A stretch of 44,651 nucleotides of DNA from a virus. Its lineage: Duplodnaviria > Heunggongvirae > Uroviricota > Caudoviricetes. Positions within the stretch are counted from its first letter, which is position 1; each line of letters opens with the position of its first letter. The position numbers and the translations under genes were made by a program. Positions 20,879 through 36,035 of this stretch are shown here, in pieces. The DNA is taken from positions 1 to 44,651 of IMG/VR virus record IMGVR_UViG_3300042691_019384; one strand, given 5' to 3'. The notes beneath the pieces were generated by a model. It made no database searches and was not told where the DNA came from. It saw nothing but the letters and a program-made list of their open reading frames with translations.

Positions 20879-21973
20879 ATGGCAAAAAAACCACAAAAAG
20901 AAATTGAAAAAAAAGAATTTGATTTAGAAGCATTTAAAAAACAAATGGGTCTTGATTTTAATGTAAAAGAAAAAGAATTAGCATGGATTCCAATGTCTGA
21001 AGCATTTCATGAAGCTGTTAAAGTTCCAGGTATCCCTATTGGGTATTTCACATCATTTAGAGGATATTCAAACACTGGTAAATCAACAGCTATAATTGAA
21101 ACGATAGTTGGCTGTCAAAAATTAGGTATTTTACCGATTATATATGATACAGAAACTAATTTTAATTGGGAACACGCTAGAAATATTGGTATTGATTATA
21201 GTATTGTTTATGATGAAGAAACAAATAAAGAAAAATATGTTGGTGATTTTATTTACATTTCTGGTTATGATTTAGTAACTATGTACGCAAATTACGACCA
21301 CCAACATAGTAAAATGGGTACAAAACCATTAAGAGATGAACCAGTTGTTGAAGATATTGCTTTACATATGCATTCTATATTGGATGCACAAAAAAATGGT
21401 AGCTTACAAAAAAATGTTTGTTTCTTATGGGATTCTGTTGGTAGCGTTAATTGTTTTAAATCTGCAACATCAAAAACAAGCAATAATCAGTGGACAGCAG
21501 GTGCGTTAGCTAATTCTTTTAAAAGTTTAATTAACTATAGAATACCATCAACAAGACGTGAAACTTCAGAGTATACTGCTACATTTGCTGTAGTTCAACA
21601 AATATGGTTAGATAATGAAAATAAAGTCATTAAACATAAAGGCGGTGAAGCGTTTTTCTATTCCCCAAGATTAATTTTCCATTTTGGCGGTATTTTAACA
21701 CATTCAACAGAAAAATTAAAAGCAACACTAAATGGTGAAGAATATCAGTTTGGTGTTGAAACTAAAATTAGATGTGAAAAAAACCAAGTTAACGGTATTG
21801 AGCAAAAAGGTAGATTAGCATCAACACCACATGGTTATTGGAACCCAGATAGATTAAACGAATATAAAGAAATTCATAAAGAGTATATTAAAACCCGTTT
21901 AAATACTGAATATGATGACTTTATCATCGAAAAAGAAGAAAGTAATTTAAGCGATAACGATTTCAAAGCGTAA
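20879..21973 (+). CDS. uvsX: RecA/UvsX-like recombinase
   Basis: Walker A GYSNTGKST, YDTE, Walker B FLWDSVGS, VVQQIW and GGEAFFYSPRL. Confidence 0.8.
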   Translation: MAKKPQKEIEKKEFDLEAFKKQMGLDFNVKEKELAWIPMSEAFHEAVKVPGIPIGYFTSFRGYSNTGKSTAIIETIVGCQKLGILPIIYDTETNFNWEHARNIGIDYSIVYDEETNKEKYVGDFIYISGYDLVTMYANYDHQHSKMGTKPLRDEPVVEDIALHMHSILDAQKNGSLQKNVCFLWDSVGSVNCFKSATSKTSNNQWTAGALANSFKSLINYRIPSTRRETSEYTATFAVVQQIWLDNENKVIKHKGGEAFFYSPRLIFHFGGILTHSTEKLKATLNGEEYQFGVETKIRCEKNQVNGIEQKGRLASTPHGYWNPDRLNEYKEIHKEYIKTRLNTEYDDFIIEKEESNLSDNDFKA

Positions 21974-27423: not shown

Positions 27424-27933
27424 ATGAAAAAATTAATTAAAAAATTACTAAGAGAAAACTTAGAATCAAACAATAATATTAAAGATATATTAATTAAAAG
27501 AATCCCTTTTCTTAAAGAATATAATATATTTAAACACCCTAGAGACGAAAAAAGATTAGAAGCACAAAGAGTAGTTTATAATGAAAACGTAACAATGATG
27601 ATGGGTGATGAAATAATAAAATTCCCACAGTTAAACATCTCATCTGAAATCATTTATTACCCACATAAAATAAATGATAATACGTTTCATAAATTTATTA
27701 TAAAAAATCAATTTCATACAATGCAACCAAAAGAAATGGATGATTTAACATTTAGAGTTTTTATTATTGCGATGAAAGGTTTAAATGAAACCCTATCTTA
27801 TAATAAAGAAATAATGGTAAAAAATAATGAAGAAATACCAAAAAACGAATTAGATAGAATAATAAATGATATGAACAGAACCCTATTTAAAATAGAAGAA
27901 TTCACCCAAAAATATTATATTGATTTATTTTAA
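27424..27933 (+). CDS. Leader-bearing hypothetical protein
   Basis: ATG 27424 gives MKKLIKKLLRENLE, matching neighbouring genes; preferred over the track start at 27403. Confidence 0.65.
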   Translation: MKKLIKKLLRENLESNNNIKDILIKRIPFLKEYNIFKHPRDEKRLEAQRVVYNENVTMMMGDEIIKFPQLNISSEIIYYPHKINDNTFHKFIIKNQFHTMQPKEMDDLTFRVFIIAMKGLNETLSYNKEIMVKNNEEIPKNELDRIINDMNRTLFKIEEFTQKYYIDLF

Positions 27934-27948
27934 TAAAAAAAAAGATAA

Positions 27949-28842
27949 ATGAAACAACTAATAAGAAAACTATTAAGGGAAATTACCAATAATAATGAAC
28001 AGATTTATCTTTATCATGGGACTAGTAAAGGTGCTGCAAACAATATAAAAAAAGATGGTTATATTAAAACAAATAATGTTGGTGAAATAAAACCTTCAAT
28101 TAGCTTCACAAACGATATTGATTATGCAAAATATTATGCCATGTCTAAAGGTGGTAAAGATAGAATGGTAATATTAAGAACAATTTTAACTGATGATTTT
28201 GAATTGTCTAACAGAATAAAAAATAATAAAGGTGATGAATATATAACATTTGAAAATATCCCAGTAAATAAATTAGAAATAAAAACAAAATATGGGTGGA
28301 TACCTCTAACCAAATGGGATGTTATTTTTGACGAACTAATAACTGAAAACACATTATATAATGATGTTTTTAAATTTAAAAATGATTTATACATTAATGA
28401 TTTAAAAAAAGAATTATCAAAATATGAAACATCAGAACAATTACTTAGAAGTGGTGGTTTATCAATAGAACTATTAGATAGATTAGCACATGGTTTTTCT
28501 GAAGAAGATATTAAAACCTTAAAACCAAAAGAATTAAAATTAAAATGGTTAGCCGATTTGGAAAATGTTGTATATGAAATAGAAAAAAGCGGTTTATCAC
28601 CAAAAGAATGGGCTAAAAAAATAAACTTATCAGAACCAATTGATGTCTCATTTTTAAAAATTAAAAATAAAAAACCAGGGTTTTATATAGAAGATGGTCA
28701 TCATAGATATATGGCAGCAAAAATATTAAATAAAGAACTACCAATAAATTTAGAAATAAAAATTAACCCTATTGTAACAATATCACCAGATTTAACCTAC
28801 GATGAGTTCCATAGAAAAATTTTTGACACGTTTAGTAATTAA
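27949..28842 (+). CDS. Leader-bearing ART-fold domain fused to a ParB/Srx-like domain
   Basis: MKQLIRKLLRE leader; YLYHGTS (H23), SFT..A..YA and DEY (E97); LITE linker (130-133); C-terminal PIDV..FYIEDGHHRYMAAKIL. Confidence 0.65.
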   Translation: MKQLIRKLLREITNNNEQIYLYHGTSKGAANNIKKDGYIKTNNVGEIKPSISFTNDIDYAKYYAMSKGGKDRMVILRTILTDDFELSNRIKNNKGDEYITFENIPVNKLEIKTKYGWIPLTKWDVIFDELITENTLYNDVFKFKNDLYINDLKKELSKYETSEQLLRSGGLSIELLDRLAHGFSEEDIKTLKPKELKLKWLADLENVVYEIEKSGLSPKEWAKKINLSEPIDVSFLKIKNKKPGFYIEDGHHRYMAAKILNKELPINLEIKINPIVTISPDLTYDEFHRKIFDTFSN

Positions 28843-29664: not shown

Positions 29665-31146
29665 ATGAGAATATTAAAGAGAGATAAAACGACACAGGCA
29701 TTTATGCCAAATAAGATTCTAAGTAGAATAAAAGGTCAATCAAATGGATTAAAAATTGATTCTGATTCATTATTTCAAGAGGTTATACCATTGATAACGG
29801 ATAACATAACAACAACTGAGATTGACGAGATAATAGCGTTTAAAGCGGCTGACAAGATAATACAACACCCAGATTATTCATTACTTGGTGGTAGGATTTT
29901 ATTAAGTAGACAATCTAAATTAATTGGTAAAGAATTAAAACCAGTTGATTTAACATATGATTTTTTTGCTGCAACAACTTTTTTAACTAAATATTCTAAA
30001 AGAGATTCTAATAAAAACCCTATTGAATTACCATCATGTATGTATGAAAGGGTTGCAAATCATTTACATGGTGATAATGAAGAGTTAAGAAATAATTTAA
30101 TAAATGAGCTTAATTTAAAAAGAATTAATTTTGCCACACCAATTTATACCAATGCTGGTATTGATAAACGAGGTGGTATGATTTCTTGTAACTTAACACA
30201 TTTAGAAGGGGATAGCTTTCAAGAAATAGAAAACACATTAACGATGATATCAGCAGCATCTAAAGAAGGTTCTGGTATTGGGTTATTGGTTGACCCATTA
30301 AGAAGCAAAGAAAGTGTTGTAGAATCTTTTCAAGGTAATGCTGGTGGTATTGTTAGATTTGCTGACATGGTACAATCAAAAATGAGATTTTATAAACAAG
30401 GTTCTCGTTCTGGTAGTTGCGCTTTATATTTATCTGTTTGGCATAAAGATATTATTGATTTCTTAGAATTAACATTACCAATTGGGGATGAACAATTAAG
30501 AACACGTGATTTATTTACAGCTGTTGTAATAAATGATTTGTTTATGGAGAGATTAGAAACTGGTGGTGATTGGTATTTATTTTGTCCTAATGATATTAAA
30601 AAAGCTGGATTAAGACCATTATATGATTTATATGGTACTGAATTTAATGAAGAGTATGAAAAAGCTGTTAATCTAGGTATAGGTAAGAAAGTAAATCCTA
30701 AAGAAATATTTGACTCTATTATTAAATCTCAAGTTGAGAGTGGCAGACCTTATGTTATGTATAAAGACAACGCTAACAAAAGAAATATGCAATCAAATAT
30801 TGGTCCAATTAAAATGAGTAATCTATGCATATCTGAAGATTCAATAATAGACATAATTTTAGATAATGAAGAACATAAGGTTGATATCAAAACATTAAAT
30901 GAATTATTTAAAGTCAATAAGAATATATTAGTTAAATCTTATAATATTGAAAACGATATTATAGAATACAAACAGCTATTAGCATCAGCTATGACTAGTA
31001 AAGATGCAGAAGTTTTAGAAATAATAGATGATAAAACAAATAAAAAACTAATATGCACACCAGAACATAAAATATATACAATTAATAGAGGGTATGTTAT
31101 GGCTAAAGACTTAATTGAAAACGATATGTTAAAAATATTACAATAA
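29665..31146 (+). CDS. nrdA: Ribonucleotide reductase alpha subunit, N-terminal half, fused to split intein N-fragment
   Basis: ATP-cone-like start, FATP, MISC (C225-equivalent), GRSGSCALYL and GRPYVMYKDNAN motifs; ends MSNL followed by intein block A (CISEDS). Confidence 0.95.
   Translation: MRILKRDKTTQAFMPNKILSRIKGQSNGLKIDSDSLFQEVIPLITDNITTTEIDEIIAFKAADKIIQHPDYSLLGGRILLSRQSKLIGKELKPVDLTYDFFAATTFLTKYSKRDSNKNPIELPSCMYERVANHLHGDNEELRNNLINELNLKRINFATPIYTNAGIDKRGGMISCNLTHLEGDSFQEIENTLTMISAASKEGSGIGLLVDPLRSKESVVESFQGNAGGIVRFADMVQSKMRFYKQGSRSGSCALYLSVWHKDIIDFLELTLPIGDEQLRTRDLFTAVVINDLFMERLETGGDWYLFCPNDIKKAGLRPLYDLYGTEFNEEYEKAVNLGIGKKVNPKEIFDSIIKSQVESGRPYVMYKDNANKRNMQSNIGPIKMSNLCISEDSIIDIILDNEEHKVDIKTLNELFKVNKNILVKSYNIENDIIEYKQLLASAMTSKDAEVLEIIDDKTNKKLICTPEHKIYTINRGYVMAKDLIENDMLKILQ
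30826..31143 (+). mobile_element. Split intein, N-fragment (106 aa)
   Basis: Starts at Cys388 (CISEDSIID), contains block B CTPEHKIYT and NRGYVMAKDL..D.L, then stops; no endonuclease domain inside. Confidence 0.95.
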
Positions 31147-31153
31147 CCTAAAC

Positions 31154-31205
31154 ATAAATTGGTCTTTTTAATAAATTAAAATATTTATTAAAAAGACCAA
31201 TTTAT
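31154..31205 (+). promoter_or_regulatory. Perfect 23-bp hairpin abutting the endonuclease start codon, containing a TATTTATT late-promoter motif (31182-31189)
   Basis: ataaattggtctttttaataaat (31154-31176), a 6-nt loop, then its exact reverse complement (31183-31205); ATG at 31206. Confidence 0.85.
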
Positions 31206-32243
31206 ATGATAAAAAAACACACAAAAATAAATGAATTAATTAATAACAAAGATTTTATAACGTTATTTGATTCAGAATTAATTAAATATATTGATAAAAT
31301 AATAAAAGATGTATATCAAAAACACAAAGCTTTGAAAAACTTATATTTAAATAACGTATTAACATTTGATAATTTTAAGAATTGTTACTCAAATAACAAC
31401 ATATTAAAAATATGGAAGAACGGTAGATTTGCATGGCCTGATGACTGCGTTAATTTTTTTAAGGGTTATCATAGTAAAGGTAAATTAAGACCAGAACATT
31501 CTGAAAAGATGAAAATAAAAATGAAGGGTATTAATAGAGGCGATTCGTTTAGAGAAACAAAAAAAATTCAAAACTCTAGTATTAATTTTAAAATAAAATT
31601 TTTAAATAATAAAAACATAGATACAACATTAAAAACGGAAGATGAAATAAATAAATTATATGGATTAACAATTTCAGATTTAAGAAAATCAAAACAATAT
31701 AAGATAAAAAAGGTTAAAAATTTTTTAAAATCTAATAAATATTTAAATGAAACGATATTTTTAAACTTTAAGAATGAAATTAATGATATTAATATATGTG
31801 ATGAAAATATAAATACTATACACACAAAAATGATGTCAATAATATCAACTATTAGCATGAATAGGAATGAAAATATGGGGTCAACAAAATTCTTTAAAAC
31901 TGGTTTTATTAAAGTAAAGAATTGTTTAAATAAAAGTATAATAAGGTATAGAAGTTCTTGGGAATTTAAAACAATAGAATTTTTAGAACTAAATAATATA
32001 ATATATAGTTATGAACCTTTTTATATTGAAAAGGAAAACGGTACGTTATACTTACCAGATTTTTTAATCGAATATAATGGTGAAAAAATATTATTAGAGA
32101 TTAAAGGGTTTATTAGGGGTGTAAAAGGAAAATTAAATGAAGAAATGAAAATTAATGCCGCTAAAAAATATTGTAATGAAAATAAAATAAGATACGTATA
32201 CCTAAAAAAAGTATTAACAAACATAAATGAAATAATAAAATAA
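31206..32243 (+). CDS. Free-standing putative homing endonuclease, PD-(D/E)XK TnsA-N-like
   Basis: C-terminal YRSSWE..YEPF.I..YLPDFLI..LLEIKG..K..AA..C motif; NUMOD3-like RPEHSEKMKIKMKG; sits between the two nrdA halves. Confidence 0.75.
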   Translation: MIKKHTKINELINNKDFITLFDSELIKYIDKIIKDVYQKHKALKNLYLNNVLTFDNFKNCYSNNNILKIWKNGRFAWPDDCVNFFKGYHSKGKLRPEHSEKMKIKMKGINRGDSFRETKKIQNSSINFKIKFLNNKNIDTTLKTEDEINKLYGLTISDLRKSKQYKIKKVKNFLKSNKYLNETIFLNFKNEINDINICDENINTIHTKMMSIISTISMNRNENMGSTKFFKTGFIKVKNCLNKSIIRYRSSWEFKTIEFLELNNIIYSYEPFYIEKENGTLYLPDFLIEYNGEKILLEIKGFIRGVKGKLNEEMKINAAKKYCNENKIRYVYLKKVLTNINEIIK

Positions 32244-32244
32244 T

Positions 32245-32346
32245 ATGGGGATTAAAATAAGAAAAATCGAGACAACATTACCAGTATATGATTTAACGAT
32301 AGATGGTAATAATAATTTTTTTGCAAATGGAATACTTATCCACAAC
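32245..32346 (+). mobile_element. Split intein, C-fragment (34 aa)
   Basis: MGIKIRKIETTLPVYDLTIDGNNNFFANGILIHN, with blocks F and G, terminal His-Asn and +1 Cys at 32347-32349. Confidence 0.95.
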
Positions 32347-33339
32347 TGTGCAGAAATTTTCCAGGCCAGCTCACCAAGAAAAACATCTCAATGCACATTA
32401 GCATCAATTAATTTATCTGAACATGATGATATTGATACAATAGAAACATCAACAAAGATATTGGTTAGAGGATTAAATGAGGTTATAAATAAAAATAAAT
32501 GGAGTGATGAATGGAGCGAATCTGCTGGTTTAGAACAAAGAGCATTAGCAATTGGTGTAGCTGGTTTAGCTGATTTCTTTGCAAAGAAAAAAATATCTTT
32601 TGAAAGTGAAGAAGCTAAAGAATGGACACATAAGATATTTGAAACAATGTATAAATCAGCAATTATTGAATCAATGACAATTGCTGAAGAACTTGGTGTT
32701 AATTATCCAGCTTGGGAAGGTAGTTTATATTCAAAGGGTGAAACATATATTGAAGGATGGTCACCAAAACCAAATGGAGAACCAATACCATTGTATAACA
32801 GTTTGTTATTAGGATTAATGCCTACAGCTACCAGTGCGATTTTATTAGGTGTTTTTGAATCATTTGAACCTGTAACATCAAATTTATTTACAAGGCGTGT
32901 TGGTCAAGGTGAGTTTTTGGTTATCAACAAATATCTTGTTAATGAATTGCTTGAAAATAATCTTTGGGATGTTGAAATGATTGATAAGGTTATTAAGAAT
33001 AAGGGAAGTATACAGAACATTACTGAAATACCTGAAGAGGTTAGGTATAGGTATAAAGATGTATGGGAAATACCACAAAGAGTTTTATTAGATTTAGCTA
33101 TAATTAGAAACAAATATGTTGACCAATCACAGTCATTAAATGTTTATCATTCTGATGCTAAATATGGTAAAATTGCCAGTGCATTAATGTATGCTTGGAA
33201 AGGTGGATTAAAAACTGGTGTTTATTATACTAGAACAAAATCAAAGCTTGACACTAATACAAAATTAGCTTCAACACAAATAACCGTTACCAAAAAACCA
33301 ACCGACAGTCAATTTGAATGTTTTGGTTGTTCAAGTTAA
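32245..33339 (+). CDS. nrdA: Split intein C-fragment fused to the ribonucleotide reductase alpha subunit C-terminal half
   Basis: After HN|CAEI: QCTLASINL (C462-equivalent), RALAIGVAGLAD, LMPTATSA, QSQSLN, GLKTGVYY and terminal CFGC. Confidence 0.95.
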   Translation: MGIKIRKIETTLPVYDLTIDGNNNFFANGILIHNCAEIFQASSPRKTSQCTLASINLSEHDDIDTIETSTKILVRGLNEVINKNKWSDEWSESAGLEQRALAIGVAGLADFFAKKKISFESEEAKEWTHKIFETMYKSAIIESMTIAEELGVNYPAWEGSLYSKGETYIEGWSPKPNGEPIPLYNSLLLGLMPTATSAILLGVFESFEPVTSNLFTRRVGQGEFLVINKYLVNELLENNLWDVEMIDKVIKNKGSIQNITEIPEEVRYRYKDVWEIPQRVLLDLAIIRNKYVDQSQSLNVYHSDAKYGKIASALMYAWKGGLKTGVYYTRTKSKLDTNTKLASTQITVTKKPTDSQFECFGCSS

Positions 33340-33361
33340 AATAATAATAAATAACACAAAC

Positions 33362-33394
33362 AAAAAACCACAAATATTTGTGGTTTTTTTTTTT
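33362..33394 (+). terminator. nrdA terminator, also the first element of the cassette repeat
   Basis: Perfect 28-nt palindrome aaaaaaccacaaatatttgtggtttttt, with a run of 11 T. Confidence 0.85.
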
Positions 33395-33527
33395 CTTAAT
33401 GTATTTATTATAAAACATAAAAAAGATATGAAAAAAGTTGTAAGAATTAAAGAAAGTGAATTGGTTAATTTAATCGATAAAATTATCACAGAAACTACTA
33501 GAAAAAGAAAAATTACTGAAGGCGTTA
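33362..33527 (+). repeat. Cassette 5' repeat, copy 1 (terminator + TATTTATT at 33402-33409 + 33-codon leader)
   Basis: Aligns with 34446-34610; coding differences are mostly synonymous. Confidence 0.95.
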
Positions 33528-34411
33528 CAATACCAACAAAAGATGTTAGCGGTTGGTCATTAAAAGATAAATTAGAGGATGTACATGGTAAAGTTGGTCA
33601 AGGTTCTATTTTTGCTAAATCTATTGATGATGTTTTAAATATAGTTCAAGACACATTAAATAAAAGAAATGATATTGATAAAATTGCTAATACAACTGGA
33701 ACAGTAAATATTAAAGTACCAAATATTGGTTACAATTTGGTACTACCAATAGAAGATGCTAAAAAATTACCTAATGCTCAAGAAACTGAAGTTGAGAAAA
33801 TTGAAGGTCCTAATAAAATAAAAGTACCAGCAATTAAAACAACAGCACCAATAAACCAATTTAGAACAGATGAATTAACAATAATCGTTAGACCAAAAAA
33901 AGATGAAAAAGGCACTGCAATACCTAATGAATATATTGTATTATCCGCTTTCCCAGGAGACCCAAATATACCAAGAACATCAGAATGGGGTGGAAGATAT
34001 GCTGTTATTATACCTGATTCTAAAGAAATAAATGAAAATAAAAAAGTTGTAAGAATTAAAGAAAGTGATTTGGTTAATTTAATCGATAAAATTATTACAG
34101 AATCAAATAAAACTATTAGACAAATGATTAATGAAGAAGAATATTATCATAGAGGACAAGATGGAACTCAATCTGTTATTATTCCAGATAATTTAGGTGA
34201 AGTAAATTCTGAAGATTTTGCTTATGCTTTAGAATCTTATGGTCAAGGGTCGATGGATGAACGAGATTTTCAAGTCGGTGTAGAATATACAATTATTGTT
34301 ACATCTCAAAGTGGTGATGAACCCACTAAAGAAGTTACTTTTAAACTTAAAAAATCTAATGGCGATAAATTAGAAGTTGATAAAGATTCTATATCAACTG
34401 ATATTTTGTAA
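33428..34411 (+). CDS. Cassette 1: leader + domain A (possible RNase-toxin-like) + internal leader copy + domain B
   Basis: Start reassigned to ATG 33428 (327 aa) from the repeat structure; the leader sequence recurs in frame at 34040-34102. Confidence 0.75.
   Translation: MKKVVRIKESELVNLIDKIITETTRKRKITEGVTIPTKDVSGWSLKDKLEDVHGKVGQGSIFAKSIDDVLNIVQDTLNKRNDIDKIANTTGTVNIKVPNIGYNLVLPIEDAKKLPNAQETEVEKIEGPNKIKVPAIKTTAPINQFRTDELTIIVRPKKDEKGTAIPNEYIVLSAFPGDPNIPRTSEWGGRYAVIIPDSKEINENKKVVRIKESDLVNLIDKIITESNKTIRQMINEEEYYHRGQDGTQSVIIPDNLGEVNSEDFAYALESYGQGSMDERDFQVGVEYTIIVTSQSGDEPTKEVTFKLKKSNGDKLEVDKDSISTDIL
34040..34102 (+). repeat. Internal in-frame copy of the leader coding sequence
   Basis: aaaaaagttgtaagaattaaagaaagtgatttggttaatttaatcgataaaattattacagaa encodes KKVVRIKESDLVNLIDKIITE. 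Confidence 0.95.
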
Positions 34412-34445
34412 AATTATTGAGAATATAATGGTATTACACAAATGA

Positions 34446-34610
34446 AAAAAACCACAAAATTTGTGGTTTTTTTTTTTCTTAATATATTTATTATAAAACA
34501 TAAAAAAGATATGAAAAAAGTTGTAAGAATTAAAGAAAGTGAATTGGTTAATTTAATCGATAAGATTATTACAGAAACTACCAGAAAACAAAAGATTACT
34601 GAAGGTGTTA
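34446..34610 (+). repeat. Cassette 5' repeat, copy 2 (TATTTATT at 34485-34492)
   Basis: 34457-34610 matches 35181-35334 at 152 of 154 nt by manual alignment. Confidence 0.95.
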
Positions 34611-35056
34611 GAAACTTAGCTGGAAAACAGATTATTAATGAAGAAATGGTTTTGAAAGAAGATGCTTTAGTATTAAAAAATTACGGTAAACAATTATATT
34701 CTTTATTTAAAAAAGAAGGAGCGACACCACTTCTAGATTTTGGTGGTAAAAAAGTAACAAGTCCAGATGTTAAAAATCAAAACGTTTTTATTAGTGCTTA
34801 TGGTGATGTATTACATGTTGATATTAGGGGTGTTAATAAAGCTAATGCTCAAAAATACGGTAATTTAGTTGCTAAGCAATTTCCAGACCTAGAACTAAAA
34901 AAAGGATTAAGTGGTGAATATATAGAGATTGGAAGCGGATGGGGTGGTGAAGAAAAAGATTCTTATGCCAGACTTACCCTAGGTCCTAAAACAACAAGAA
35001 AGGGTGGAGAGGTAAATCCAAATCAAAGACCCAATGCACCGAAACCACAAGCTTAA
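34511..35056 (+). CDS. Cassette 2: leader + unknown cargo domain
   Basis: Start reassigned to ATG 34511 (181 aa). Confidence 0.75.
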   Translation: MKKVVRIKESELVNLIDKIITETTRKQKITEGVRNLAGKQIINEEMVLKEDALVLKNYGKQLYSLFKKEGATPLLDFGGKKVTSPDVKNQNVFISAYGDVLHVDIRGVNKANAQKYGNLVAKQFPDLELKKGLSGEYIEIGSGWGGEEKDSYARLTLGPKTTRKGGEVNPNQRPNAPKPQA

Positions 35057-35120
35057 CAACAAAAAGTTAGTGAAAATTTAAGAATAAAAAATTATTTTAA
35101 ATAACCTACCACAAAAAAAG

Positions 35121-35160
35121 AATAAAACCTCTAAATAACATTAGGGGTTTTTTTATTTAT
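35121..35160 (+). repeat. Cassette 3' repeat with terminator, copy 1
   Basis: aataaaacctctaaataacattaggggtttttttatttat, identical to 35570-35609; contains a hairpin and T-run. Confidence 0.95.
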
Positions 35161-35180
35161 TAGTAAATAAAAAAATAATT

Positions 35181-35334
35181 AAATTTGTGGTTTTTTTTTT
35201 TCTTAATGTATTTATTATAAAACATAAAAAAGATATGAAAAAAGTTGTAAGAATTAAAGAAAGTGAATTGGTTAATTTAATCGATAAGATTATTACAGAA
35301 ACTACCAGAAAACAAAAGATTACTGAAGGGGTTA
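35181..35334 (+). repeat. Cassette 5' repeat, copy 3 (half hairpin only; TATTTATT at 35209-35216)
   Basis: Begins at the centre of the terminator palindrome (aaatttgtgg); otherwise near-identical to copy 2. Confidence 0.95.
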
Positions 35335-35552
35335 TTAAGGAAGATGAGATTGGTATGTTCCACGACCCAAGAATGAATTCAATCCATTCTTTTAAAGACG
35401 ATGATGATAAATGGGAAAATGGTGCATTGTGGGTTAGAATCACAATGTTAAAAAATATTATAGGTATTAAAGATGATGAAATTGCTAAAATAAATGCCGT
35501 AAATTTAGAGAATAAAACTTGGGATGAAGTTAAAAAAATATTTAATAAATAA
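35235..35552 (+). CDS. Cassette 3: leader + short unknown cargo domain
   Basis: Start reassigned to ATG 35235 (105 aa). Confidence 0.75.
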   Translation: MKKVVRIKESELVNLIDKIITETTRKQKITEGVIKEDEIGMFHDPRMNSIHSFKDDDDKWENGALWVRITMLKNIIGIKDDEIAKINAVNLENKTWDEVKKIFNK

Positions 35553-35569
35553 CCCCACCACACAAAAAT

Positions 35570-35609
35570 AATAAAACCTCTAAATAACATTAGGGGTTTT
35601 TTTATTTAT
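35570..35609 (+). repeat. Cassette 3' repeat with terminator, copy 2
   Basis: 40-nt exact repeat of 35121-35160. Confidence 0.95.
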
Positions 35610-35628: not shown

Positions 35629-35636
35629 TATTTATA
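35629..35636 (+). promoter_or_regulatory. Putative late promoter (TATTTATA)
   Basis: Motif 12 nt upstream of the gp25-like ATG. Confidence 0.55.
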
Positions 35637-35648
35637 AAATAAAGATAT

Positions 35649-36035
35649 ATGGCTAGCAAGAGATATATAAATATTAATTTTCCGTTTAAGAATAGTCCAG
35701 AGGGTTTTTTTCTTGATTTAACGACAACAGATAATGCTGCAATTAAAGCTGATTTAATGCATTTAATATTAACAAGAAAGGGTCAGAGATTATATAATCC
35801 AGATTTTGGTACTAATTTATTATTATATATATTTGAACCAAATGATAGTATCACATATAGTGACTTACAAGATGAAATATCAACAACAGTAAAAAAATAT
35901 TTCCCCACAATTAATATTGATAATTTATCAGTTACAGAAGATGAAGAAAGAGAATATACCGCTGTAATAAAATTAGAATACACAATTAATGACGGTGTTT
36001 TTACAGCAAGAGATTTTATTATAGTTAAAATATAA
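35649..36035 (+). CDS. Baseplate wedge subunit (T4 gp25-like)
   Basis: FPF..DL..IKADL.HLILTRKGQRLYNPDFGTNLLLYIFEP motif; 128 aa. Confidence 0.9.
   Translation: MASKRYININFPFKNSPEGFFLDLTTTDNAAIKADLMHLILTRKGQRLYNPDFGTNLLLYIFEPNDSITYSDLQDEISTTVKKYFPTINIDNLSVTEDEEREYTAVIKLEYTINDGVFTARDFIIVKI

Follow-up and report, generated by a model that had tools for sequence, protein, structure and literature searches.

The DNA between nrdA and gp25 in this phage raises the question of why three unrelated genes should open with almost the same sequence. The window, by which we mean the whole stretch analysed (44,651 nucleotides), belongs to an incomplete 108.6-kb contig (CheckV 31%) that lacks the head module, from a very AT-rich genome (26.8% GC). 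Three units, 92–96% identical and each made of a T1 terminator hairpin, the motif TATTTATT, and a 32-codon leader, open three genes whose remaining parts, here called cargos, are mutually dissimilar and fall in no Pfam family. An earlier note on this DNA had seen in these units a recombination-driven system without an integrase. The features are listed below.

32245-33339, + strand: C-terminal half of nrdA, ribonucleotide reductase large subunit; left flank (PHROG 84, E 1.5e-62)
33362-33389, + strand: T1 terminator hairpin, copy 1 (12-bp stem and T-run; -12.3 kcal/mol, z -4.0)
33402-33409, + strand: late-type promoter motif TATTTATT of cassette 1, 18 nt upstream of the ATG
33428-33523, + strand: leader 1, 32 codons, first residues MKKVVRIKESELVNLIDKIITE, with two I-T-E triplets
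33524-34036, + strand: cargo A1, a widespread domain of ~165 residues without a Pfam family (139 representative clusters)
34040-34135, + strand: internal fourth leader, in frame (tblastn E 1e-9, 75% amino acid identity)
34136-34411, + strand: cargo A2 and stop codon of cassette 1; A2 also stands alone (P0109, 86 aa)
34444-34474, + strand: T1 terminator hairpin, copy 2 (14-bp stem; -13.6 kcal/mol, z -3.6)
34485-34492, + strand: promoter motif of cassette 2
34511-35056, + strand: cassette 2 gene, 181 aa; leader lengthened to ...KQIINEE, then cargo B
35057-35104, + strand: 3' box, an untranslated relic of a C-terminal tail (..VSENLRIKNYFK, stop)
35124-35151, + strand: T2 terminator hairpin, copy 1 (11-bp stem and T-run; within an exact 40-nt repeat)
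35169-35234, + strand: repeat unit 3 begins here, with half of T1 (its right arm) and the promoter motif (35209-35216)
35235-35552, + strand: cassette 3 gene, 105 aa; leader, ..GVIKE, cargo C
35573-35600, + strand: T2 terminator hairpin, copy 2, right end of the array (-15.1 kcal/mol, z -6.9)
35629-35636: gp25's own promoter motif ATATTTATA
35649-36035, + strand: gp25 baseplate wedge gene; right flank (PHROG 261, E 1.3e-22)
20879-21973, + strand: UvsX-like recombinase, outside the array (PHROG 97, E 5.7e-13)

The repeat search returned a single direct-repeat family (166 nt) at 33362-33527, 34445-34610, and 35169-35334 (92%, reference, and 96%), with a weaker fourth copy at 33971-34136, and BLAST within the contig was concordant. 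By tblastn, the 108.6-kb contig holds exactly four leader copies, the fourth lying in frame inside the ORF at 33428-34411 (cassette 1), where it is bordered by I-N-E, I-T-E, and I-N-E triplets. These searches bear out the three units and the internal leader of the earlier note, as well as the finer details of its description. T1 copy 1 closes the nrdA transcript and begins repeat unit 1 (33362-33527), and copy 2 begins unit 2 (34445-34610). Both fold (z ~ -4), whereas copy 3, reduced to its right arm, does not (z -0.26), as expected from the halved hairpin noted before; this half-T1 form also recurs in cassettes of relatives. Every cassette is preceded by a T1 or T2 hairpin and an ATATTTATW motif, and TATTTATT ends 18 nt ahead of the ATG in all three, again as described. 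Terminator-like sites number 6, compared with 0.9 expected from shuffled sequence. Genes 2 and 3 do share the exact 40-nt repeat that the note had picked out at their 3' ends (35121-35160 and 35570-35609), and it contains T2. The 3' box runs in frame past the cassette 2 stop and is translated in homologues (P0002-P0005 and P0034-P0037); in relatives, cargos E, F, and I, which are unrelated, are followed by the same box. The 5' and 3' modules span 150–290 nt of near-identical DNA.

To the left of the array, nrdA forms a conserved anchor (97–99% identical in relatives), with homology ending at 33360. To the right, the identity of gp25 is also seen in a Pfam GPW_gp25 match on an identical 190-kb contig. 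Between these same flanks we found four versions of the array:

Window: A, B, C
L035: 37-aa ORF, I, A, C
L010: 37-aa ORF, D, E, B
L011 and L012: 37-aa ORF, D, F, G, H

Across nrdA, cassettes A and C, and gp25, L035 matches the window at 98.4–99% identity, and its two cassette-sized differences begin and finish inside the T1-promoter-leader repeats. The flanks of L010, L011, and L012 are 94–97% identical to those of the window; homology breaks at 33360 and returns at 35531-35573. Cassette 2 sits at another position in L010 with 95.6% nucleotide identity. In relatives whose gp6 is 57–72% identical, nrdA directly adjoins gp25, and relatives also carry leader cassettes at two further loci. The comparison of the nrdA-gp25 interval, which the earlier note had proposed for finding cargo swaps, thus uncovered different cargo sets between flanks that are 94–99% identical. 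On these alignments, the recombination reading of the array is strongly supported, and the repeat units are supported as the points of exchange, with breakpoints falling at repeats. No integrase was found among the 30 window proteins scanned against PHROGs, which agrees with the absence claimed earlier, and the window encodes UvsX, the likely engine of repeat-mediated exchange. The claim that any gene caught between repeats would be recruited was overstated: what moves is ready-made leader-cargo units, or cargo joined at a cleavage triplet.

Beyond these relatives, a nucleotide search of the cultured phage collection gave no match, and the best isolates have a gp6 only 27–29% identical. A search of viral contigs with cassette 2 and exact-pattern leader scans of viral and metagenome contigs likewise gave no match, in scanned sets that may omit near-identical records.

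The note's claim of late expression fared less evenly. In this DNA, ATATTTATW sits 13–20 nt upstream of many genes, gp25 and gp6 among them, and it also precedes the prohead protease, scaffold, and other head genes of a complete 362-kb relative, G001. By contrast, the early genes gp32 and nrdA have a TAnnTTTG box instead, a host-type, Bacteroidota-like early promoter. This much fits a late motif. However, the label is not clean because ATATTTATW also lies upstream of a helicase gene (23567) and of an endonuclease gene inside nrdA.

The leader itself is conserved as a peptide. Copies 1 and 2 differ by five synonymous changes and R27Q, the single replacement reported before, and homology among copies stops two residues (G, V) past the second ITE, which specifies the end point given earlier. 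Among nine DNA variants, codons 1–26 have a pN/pS of 0.13, and all replacements are conservative. High DNA identity among leaders could nevertheless come partly from gene conversion rather than from selection on the peptide. Across cassettes, the leader measures 32–45 residues, and a set of 25 distinct proteins places one leader in front of at least 15 cargo clusters. In L014, the peptide is retained despite different upstream DNA, in the second gene of an operon with no promoter of its own. At the sequence level, ITE and ITE/ISE triplets occur inside the leader and IKE/INE/LKE/LNE at the cargo joint. A hydrophobic-x-Glu triplet directly precedes the divergence into cargo in 17/19 distinct leader proteins, a count that is not phylogenetically independent and comes from a proteome rich in Lys, Ile, and Glu, where such triplets are frequent.

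The cargos can be followed independently of this leader. Pfam and PHROGs returned nothing above threshold for any of them, and a Foldseek search of the PDB with the A1 and B models found no hit at E <= 0.001. The A1 AF2 model (pLDDT 90.7) weakly resembles CdiA-CT/MafB/RelE-type RNase toxin folds (Z 5–6.4, VIA-align), a likeness that we take as a lead and not an assignment; the cargo B model (pLDDT 78) has no clear fold match. In many other phage-like proteins, A1 likewise begins directly after a hydrophobic-x-Glu triplet. The leader-cargo-leader-cargo layout of cassette 1 is found also in P0138 and P0160, and A2 elsewhere takes other positions relative to A1 (P0040-P0042). Homologues of cargo B carry other leaders, and cargo C is 76–85% identical to proteins bearing the leader MATKKITLNELRSIVKQIIKE, with homology beginning at IKE-D. 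Cargos B and C are both found in another lineage behind a different leader. The pattern is one of lineage-specific leaders and of cargos common to several lineages.

Could such a leader direct proteins into the capsid? In T4, a 10-residue capsid targeting sequence (CTS) is enough for packaging, and gp21 cleaves after L/I-x-E (PMC9026906); giant-phage propeptides hold several cleavage sites (PMC5694885). Peptidase_S77 was not found in the 108.6-kb contig, a fragment without the head module, and the protease is therefore known only from G001, which encodes Peptidase_S77 (80 bits), has a gp6 64% identical to that of the window, and carries ..LLTE ahead of the mature-looking part of its capsid protein. 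A wider search for the protease brought up thousands of relatives, but none that could be linked to the phage of the window. Capsid addressing by the leader is plausible but unproven; it is plausible because at least 15 cargo families are fused to the leader, hydrophobic-x-Glu triplets stand at the junctions, and a relative has a gp21-type protease.

We consider it reasonably probable that the nrdA-gp25 slot holds exchangeable cassettes whose leader is a capsid-targeting propeptide removed by the protease. The junction is a hyperplastic slot for self-contained expression cassettes in an uncultured freshwater jumbo T4-like phage. Each cassette brings a 5' module (T1 hairpin, ATATTTATW late-type motif, short untranslated stretch, and 32–45-codon leader), then a variable cargo gene, and often a 3' module of relic tail box and T2. 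Comparison of the arrays shows that general recombination of the phage deletes, inserts, reorders, and fuses cassettes between co-infecting relatives. The leader would dock the product on the prohead core, and a gp21-type prohead protease would remove it at the hydrophobic-x-Glu triplets within the leader and before the cargo. The mature cargo would stay in the head and be ejected together with the DNA. The internal leader of cassette 1 would divide a polyprotein of two cargos.

An assembly artefact, which the earlier note had named as a danger, is scarcely credible here. Repeats of 150–290 nt can mislead short-read assemblers, but the 190-kb contig was assembled independently and matches at 100% identity over 19.5 kb, a span that takes in the array; the product of gene 3 occurs on five contigs, the longest of 289.7 kb; and analogous arrays exist in four other assemblies from other samples. 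We rejected this explanation given such recurrence in independent contigs and assemblies. It is also very improbable that the array is an ordinary tandem paralogue family, grown by duplication and divergence without cassette exchange. Tandem genes with common N-termini are frequent among paralogues, yet the cargos lack detectable mutual similarity and have homologues behind other leaders, and strains that are 99% identical differ in which genes they carry and in what order, the breakpoints lying in the repeats; on these grounds, the plain paralogue family was rejected as well.

The remaining doubt concerns what the leader does. It might be kept for DNA or RNA reasons only, as a recombination patch or for translation initiation, with the peptide a passenger: the repeat unit contains the promoter and start region, and leader copies within one genome are 95–100% identical in DNA, as under concerted evolution. 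We regard this as quite improbable, since synonymous differences build up while the peptide stays fixed, and it is kept both in the promoterless operon position of L014 and internally in cassette 1, where initiation is not needed. Somewhat less improbable, though still unlikely, is that exchange is real and the leader serves another role, such as an amphipathic oligomerisation helix, docking to another phage or host structure, or stability control, with the Glu triplets incidental. The leader has three to four times the length of the T4 CTS (PMC9026906), which counts against a capsid tag; the arrays adjoin baseplate genes and not head genes, hydrophobic-x-Glu is common in such composition, and packaging itself is a prediction from sequence. 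Against this stand the triplet's position exactly at the joint, also before A1 in unrelated phages, its match to the protease family found in G001, and the occurrence of the same cargos behind each lineage's own leader, as expected of a tag that fits its own core.

A capsid-addressed cassette array would have close precedents. The T-even literature (Repoila 1994, as cited in PMC2839356, PMC4122927, and PMC3012670) describes internal-protein (IP) loci as variable genes that share only a capsid targeting sequence and are flanked by PeSL-like promoter/stem-loop elements; the T4 CTS goes back to Mullaney and Black 1996, as cited in PMC9026906. As in those loci, unrelated small genes in this T4-like phage share only an N-terminal leader ending in a prohead-protease motif, gene number, order, and identity vary among close relatives, and a promoter and AT-rich stem-loops, proposed mediators of shuffling, flank the genes. 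Thus, the earlier view that a tagged version had not been described cannot stand: T-even IP loci already are tagged cassettes, and what is new here is a longer, apparently unrelated leader, a late-type promoter, and a distant jumbo phage. The leader is 32–45 residues long with several candidate cut sites, compared with 10–11 residues in T4, and has the L/I-x-E cleavage motif in common with the T4 CTS. T-even IP elements are described with early promoters (PMC2839356), whereas the array has the motif of structural genes. Unlike those loci, it also has a conserved 3' box and second terminator, occupies another genome position (nrdA-gp25), and belongs to a jumbo phage from freshwater, ~350 kb in size, whose early promoters are of Bacteroidota type and in which packaging is predicted.

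Other systems share parts of this design. PeSLs of T4-type phages (Arbiol 2010, PMC2839356; Comeau 2014, PMC4122927) are likewise composites of stem-loop and promoter repeated between ORFans, serve as homology patches for insertion, deletion, and replacement between close relatives, and have no known dedicated integrase. However, their promoters are early and sigma-70-like, their stems are G/C-rich, and they include no coding leader. The cassette motif does not match the early host sigma-70-like promoter that marks a PeSL, and the array repeat continues into 32 codons, so that the exchanged unit carries a peptide tag. Ejection proteins of phiKZ-like giant phages (PMC5694885, PMC9026906) resemble the cassette products in their long N-terminal propeptides with several Glu-ending protease sites; their N-termini are conserved on otherwise diverged head proteins, and their protease is a gp21 homologue. 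They are paralogues at fixed loci with an S/A/G-x-E motif, whereas the array has unrelated cargos in mobile cassettes. Polyvalent proteins and polymorphic toxins (PMC5512222, PMC3482391) also combine a constant delivery part with recombining effector domains, and fused multi-cargo forms occur both there and here, in cassette 1 and in homologues with two to four modules. The weak resemblance of A1 to CDI/RelE-type RNase toxin folds is a further likeness. Unlike polymorphic toxins, the array has small separate genes with their own promoter and terminator, and no secretion-system trafficking domains; immunity genes are absent from it, with no extra ORFs between a cargo and the next unit. Unlike those of integrons, its repeats are promoter-leader modules and not attC folds.

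A leader that served as a capsid address would single out the proteins delivered along with the DNA of an uncultured jumbo phage, likely first-strike tools against host defences. In that case, the window and the sister strain with 99% identity would show such an arsenal being re-dealt in nature, cassette by cassette. The T-even internal-protein picture would then extend to a distant lineage with a longer, different tag and a host that is probably a member of the Bacteroidota. A testable rule follows, in that cargo should begin after a hydrophobic-x-Glu triplet, and the leader with its flanking modules could be used to fill phage heads with foreign proteins, a use to which the T4 CTS is already put. 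It is a tentative proposal, with chances slightly short of even, that freshwater jumbo T4-like phages draw on a common pool of head-delivered effectors via lineage-specific leaders, one stretch of DNA serving as transcription boundary, capsid address, protease site, and recombination site. If so, the injected arsenal could be readable from sequence alone in uncultured phages, and strains infecting the same cell could re-deal it among themselves in the course of a few generations.

Three genes (327, 181 and 105 codons) fill the interval between the nrdA stop codon at 33339 and the start of gp25 at 35649, and each is preceded by one of three repeat units that are 92–96% identical to one another:

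33362-33527, repeat unit 1, 5' of cassette 1 (cargo A, comprising domains A1 and A2)
33524-34036, domain A1
34040-34135, fourth leader copy, in frame within cassette 1
34445-34610, repeat unit 2, 5' of cassette 2 (cargo B)
35169-35334, repeat unit 3, 5' of cassette 3 (cargo C)

Everything that the earlier note had described here was recovered. The units carry a terminator hairpin, T1, of which copy 3 keeps only the right half; TATTTATT lies 18 nt upstream of the ATG; homology among the cassettes stops two residues past the second ITE; leader copies 1 and 2 differ by five synonymous changes and one replacement; the fourth, fused leader copy is present; and cassettes 2 and 3 have in common an exact 40-nt 3' stretch, which contains a second terminator, T2. 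Each unit also encodes a leader of 32 codons. An assembly artefact was ruled out, as a 190-kb contig of another assembly is identical across 19.5 kb; the presence of the gene 3 product on five contigs, the longest of 289.7 kb, also counts against it.

To compare this locus among relatives, we used contigs reached via proteins with the same leader, which had the same flanks and other contents. As the earlier note had proposed, cargo is swapped in the nrdA-gp25 interval.

Cassette order between nrdA and gp25 in the window and in contigs of relatives
Window: A, B, C
L035: 37-aa ORF, I, A, C
L010: 37-aa ORF, D, E, B
L011 and L012: 37-aa ORF, D, F, G, H

The flanks of L010, L011 and L012 are 94–97% identical to the window, with homology ending at 33360 and restarting at 35531-35573, and the cargo-B cassette of L010 is 95.6% identical to cassette 2. 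G in L011 and L012 bears another leader, of the MKKLIRKILKE type, which two genes of the window, at 27424 and 27949, have as well. Between L035 and the window, identity is 98.4–99% across nrdA, cassettes A and C, and gp25. In L035, gene C sits behind the full T1 unit found 5' of B in the window, and gene A behind the 3' box (a relic tail before T2), T2 and half-T1 unit found 5' of C, an arrangement expected from recombination between leader units. Fusions also recur: P0138 reads leader-cargo-leader-cargo, P0160 has two tandem leaders, and A2 occurs as a stand-alone protein of 86 residues. Together, these comparisons indicate that the repeat units are exchange points. Because nrdA directly adjoins gp25 in relatives whose gp6 is 57–72% identical, the array is an insertion within one sub-lineage; two further loci hold leader cassettes in relatives, and both are empty in the window's genome. 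The 37-codon ORF, very basic at about half Lys/Arg, separates nrdA from the first cassette in each of the three other versions of the array (L010:9266-9379, L011:7823-7936, L035:2178-2291) and is missing from the window.

Past the cargo B stop codon, the reading frame runs on into a short tail ending ..NYFK before a second stop, and this tail is translated in homologues of other phages. In relatives, cargos E, F and I, which are unrelated, also have the untranslated 3' box and T2 on their 3' side, and these elements therefore act as the right-hand homology patch of a cassette.

At least 15 cargo clusters follow the leader among the 25 distinct proteins compared. Across leader codons 1–26, pN/pS was 0.13 (nine DNA variants, which are related sequences and not independent events), with replacements only of the V/I, S/T and N/T type. 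The peptide is retained in contig L014 despite different upstream DNA, in a gene without its own promoter, and within cassette 1. In a different phage lineage, cargos B and C (60–85% identity) follow another leader, MATKKITLNELRSIVKQIIKE, with the cargo C joint exactly at IKE-D, and cargo B is also found with a leader of a third type, whose end reads ..RMQKLAGIIxE. Of 19 distinct proteins with the leader, again related sequences and not independent events, 17 diverge into cargo right behind a hydrophobic-x-Glu triplet, and the leader interior holds two more. Many AT-rich phage-like proteins likewise have a short amphipathic N-terminus, then such a triplet, then A1. T4 gp21 cleaves after L/I-x-E, and the 10-residue N-terminal capsid targeting sequence (CTS) of T4, with its terminal L/I-x-E, is enough to load a foreign protein into the head (PMC9026906); propeptides of giant phages are longer and have several sites (PMC5694885). 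Among the IMG/VR relatives is G001, a complete genome of 362 kb that has terminal repeats and encodes a Peptidase_S77 above Pfam's threshold and a capsid protein in which ..LLTE precedes the mature-looking part. From the junction triplets, these precedents and the G001 peptidase, we infer that the leader is a capsid-targeting propeptide that would be packaged with its cargo and cleaved.

A 71-codon ORF of G001 (L029:1423-1638) has an N-terminus, ..VKVVRVKESDMVKMLEGIVAE, faintly similar to the leader (E 0.0016) and may be a distant homologue. About a dozen genes with an upstream ATATTTATW motif (contig-wide G000 coordinates 3919, 26003, 26844, 27424, 27949, 89840, 94111, 97809, 100632 and 107780) encode products with a short amphipathic N-terminus ending L/I-x-E, such as MKKLIKKLLRE, and are candidates for further capsid-tag families.

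Two classes of upstream region were found in the contig. The TAnnTTTG box, known as the -7 element in promoters of Bacteroidota, lies 5' of gp32, of nrdA and of numerous small genes. The ATATTTATW motif lies 13–20 nt 5' of the ATG, both in the cassettes, gp25 and gp6 and in many genes whose products start with similar amphipathic leaders. Because it precedes the prohead protease, scaffold and other head genes in G001, a "late-type" reading is supported, with the helicase gene as one exception and the endonuclease gene within nrdA as the other. T1, right behind nrdA, would shield the cassettes from early read-through.

None of the cargos matched a Pfam or PHROG family. The A1 model was confident (pLDDT 90.7), and its fold weakly but consistently resembled CdiA-CT, MafB, YxiD and RelE/ParE-type RNase toxins (Z 5–6.4, below the level of a trustworthy fold match); the B model was moderate (pLDDT 78) and had no clear counterpart. 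The domain family that includes A1 is large and unnamed (139 representative clusters); its His, Ser and Lys are invariant, its Arg and Glu nearly so. Members occur as stand-alone proteins, as parts of proteins with several modules and, in one case, at the end of a protein of 2278 residues. In the other phage lineage mentioned above (contigs L031-L034, up to 114.7 kb; e.g., L031:5001-10719), the cargo-C gene with the MATKKITLNELRS leader adjoins Cas3-like, Cas6 and Cas7fv-like genes, possibly a type I-F-like CRISPR-Cas system carried by a phage.

The window covers the opening 44.6 kb of an IMG/VR virus record 108.6 kb long (26.8% GC, CheckV completeness 31%), and the head module is absent from this 108.6-kb fragment. 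Gene content marks the phage as a distant T4-like myovirus: the window holds the T4-like marker genes gp25 and gp6, a baseplate hub, gp32-like SSB, UvsX, gp41-like helicase, nrdB, a tail tube gene, and nrdA interrupted by an intein and endonuclease gene. Identity of gp6 to the nearest cultured phages is just 27–29%. TAGTAnnTTTG-type boxes, the -7 promoter element of Bacteroidota, precede many early-looking genes (e.g., window 19869 and 29665; G000 59735, 65448, 83239 and 93553), and a 1469-aa protein has weak SprB repeat matches; both point to a Bacteroidota host. The nrdA insert (window 30832-32358) is polymorphic, since it is missing from L035, whose uninterrupted nrdA (704 codons, L035:33-2147) is 99% identical in the flanking sequence, and it is probably recent. 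At window 27936-28831 (a 297-aa leader-bearing gene with a ParB-like match), relatives instead carry, on the reverse strand, a gene of 518 aa that has weak Mom-family matches (L010:3220-4776); L010 has a gene like it, of 588 aa (DUF7487), inserted between gp25 and gp6 at L010:11830-13596.

The earlier note likened the array to PeSL cassettes and was aware of no version with a tag, yet one has already been described. PMC2839356, PMC4122927 and PMC3012670, each of which cites Repoila et al. (1994), present the T-even internal-protein loci as highly polymorphic, with more than 30 variants, genes that have only the CTS in common, and PeSL-like elements on the flanks. Our array appears to work in the manner of those loci. 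The differences lie in how long its leader is and how it reads, in the class of promoter, in the 3' box, and in the place within the genome and the lineage of the phage.
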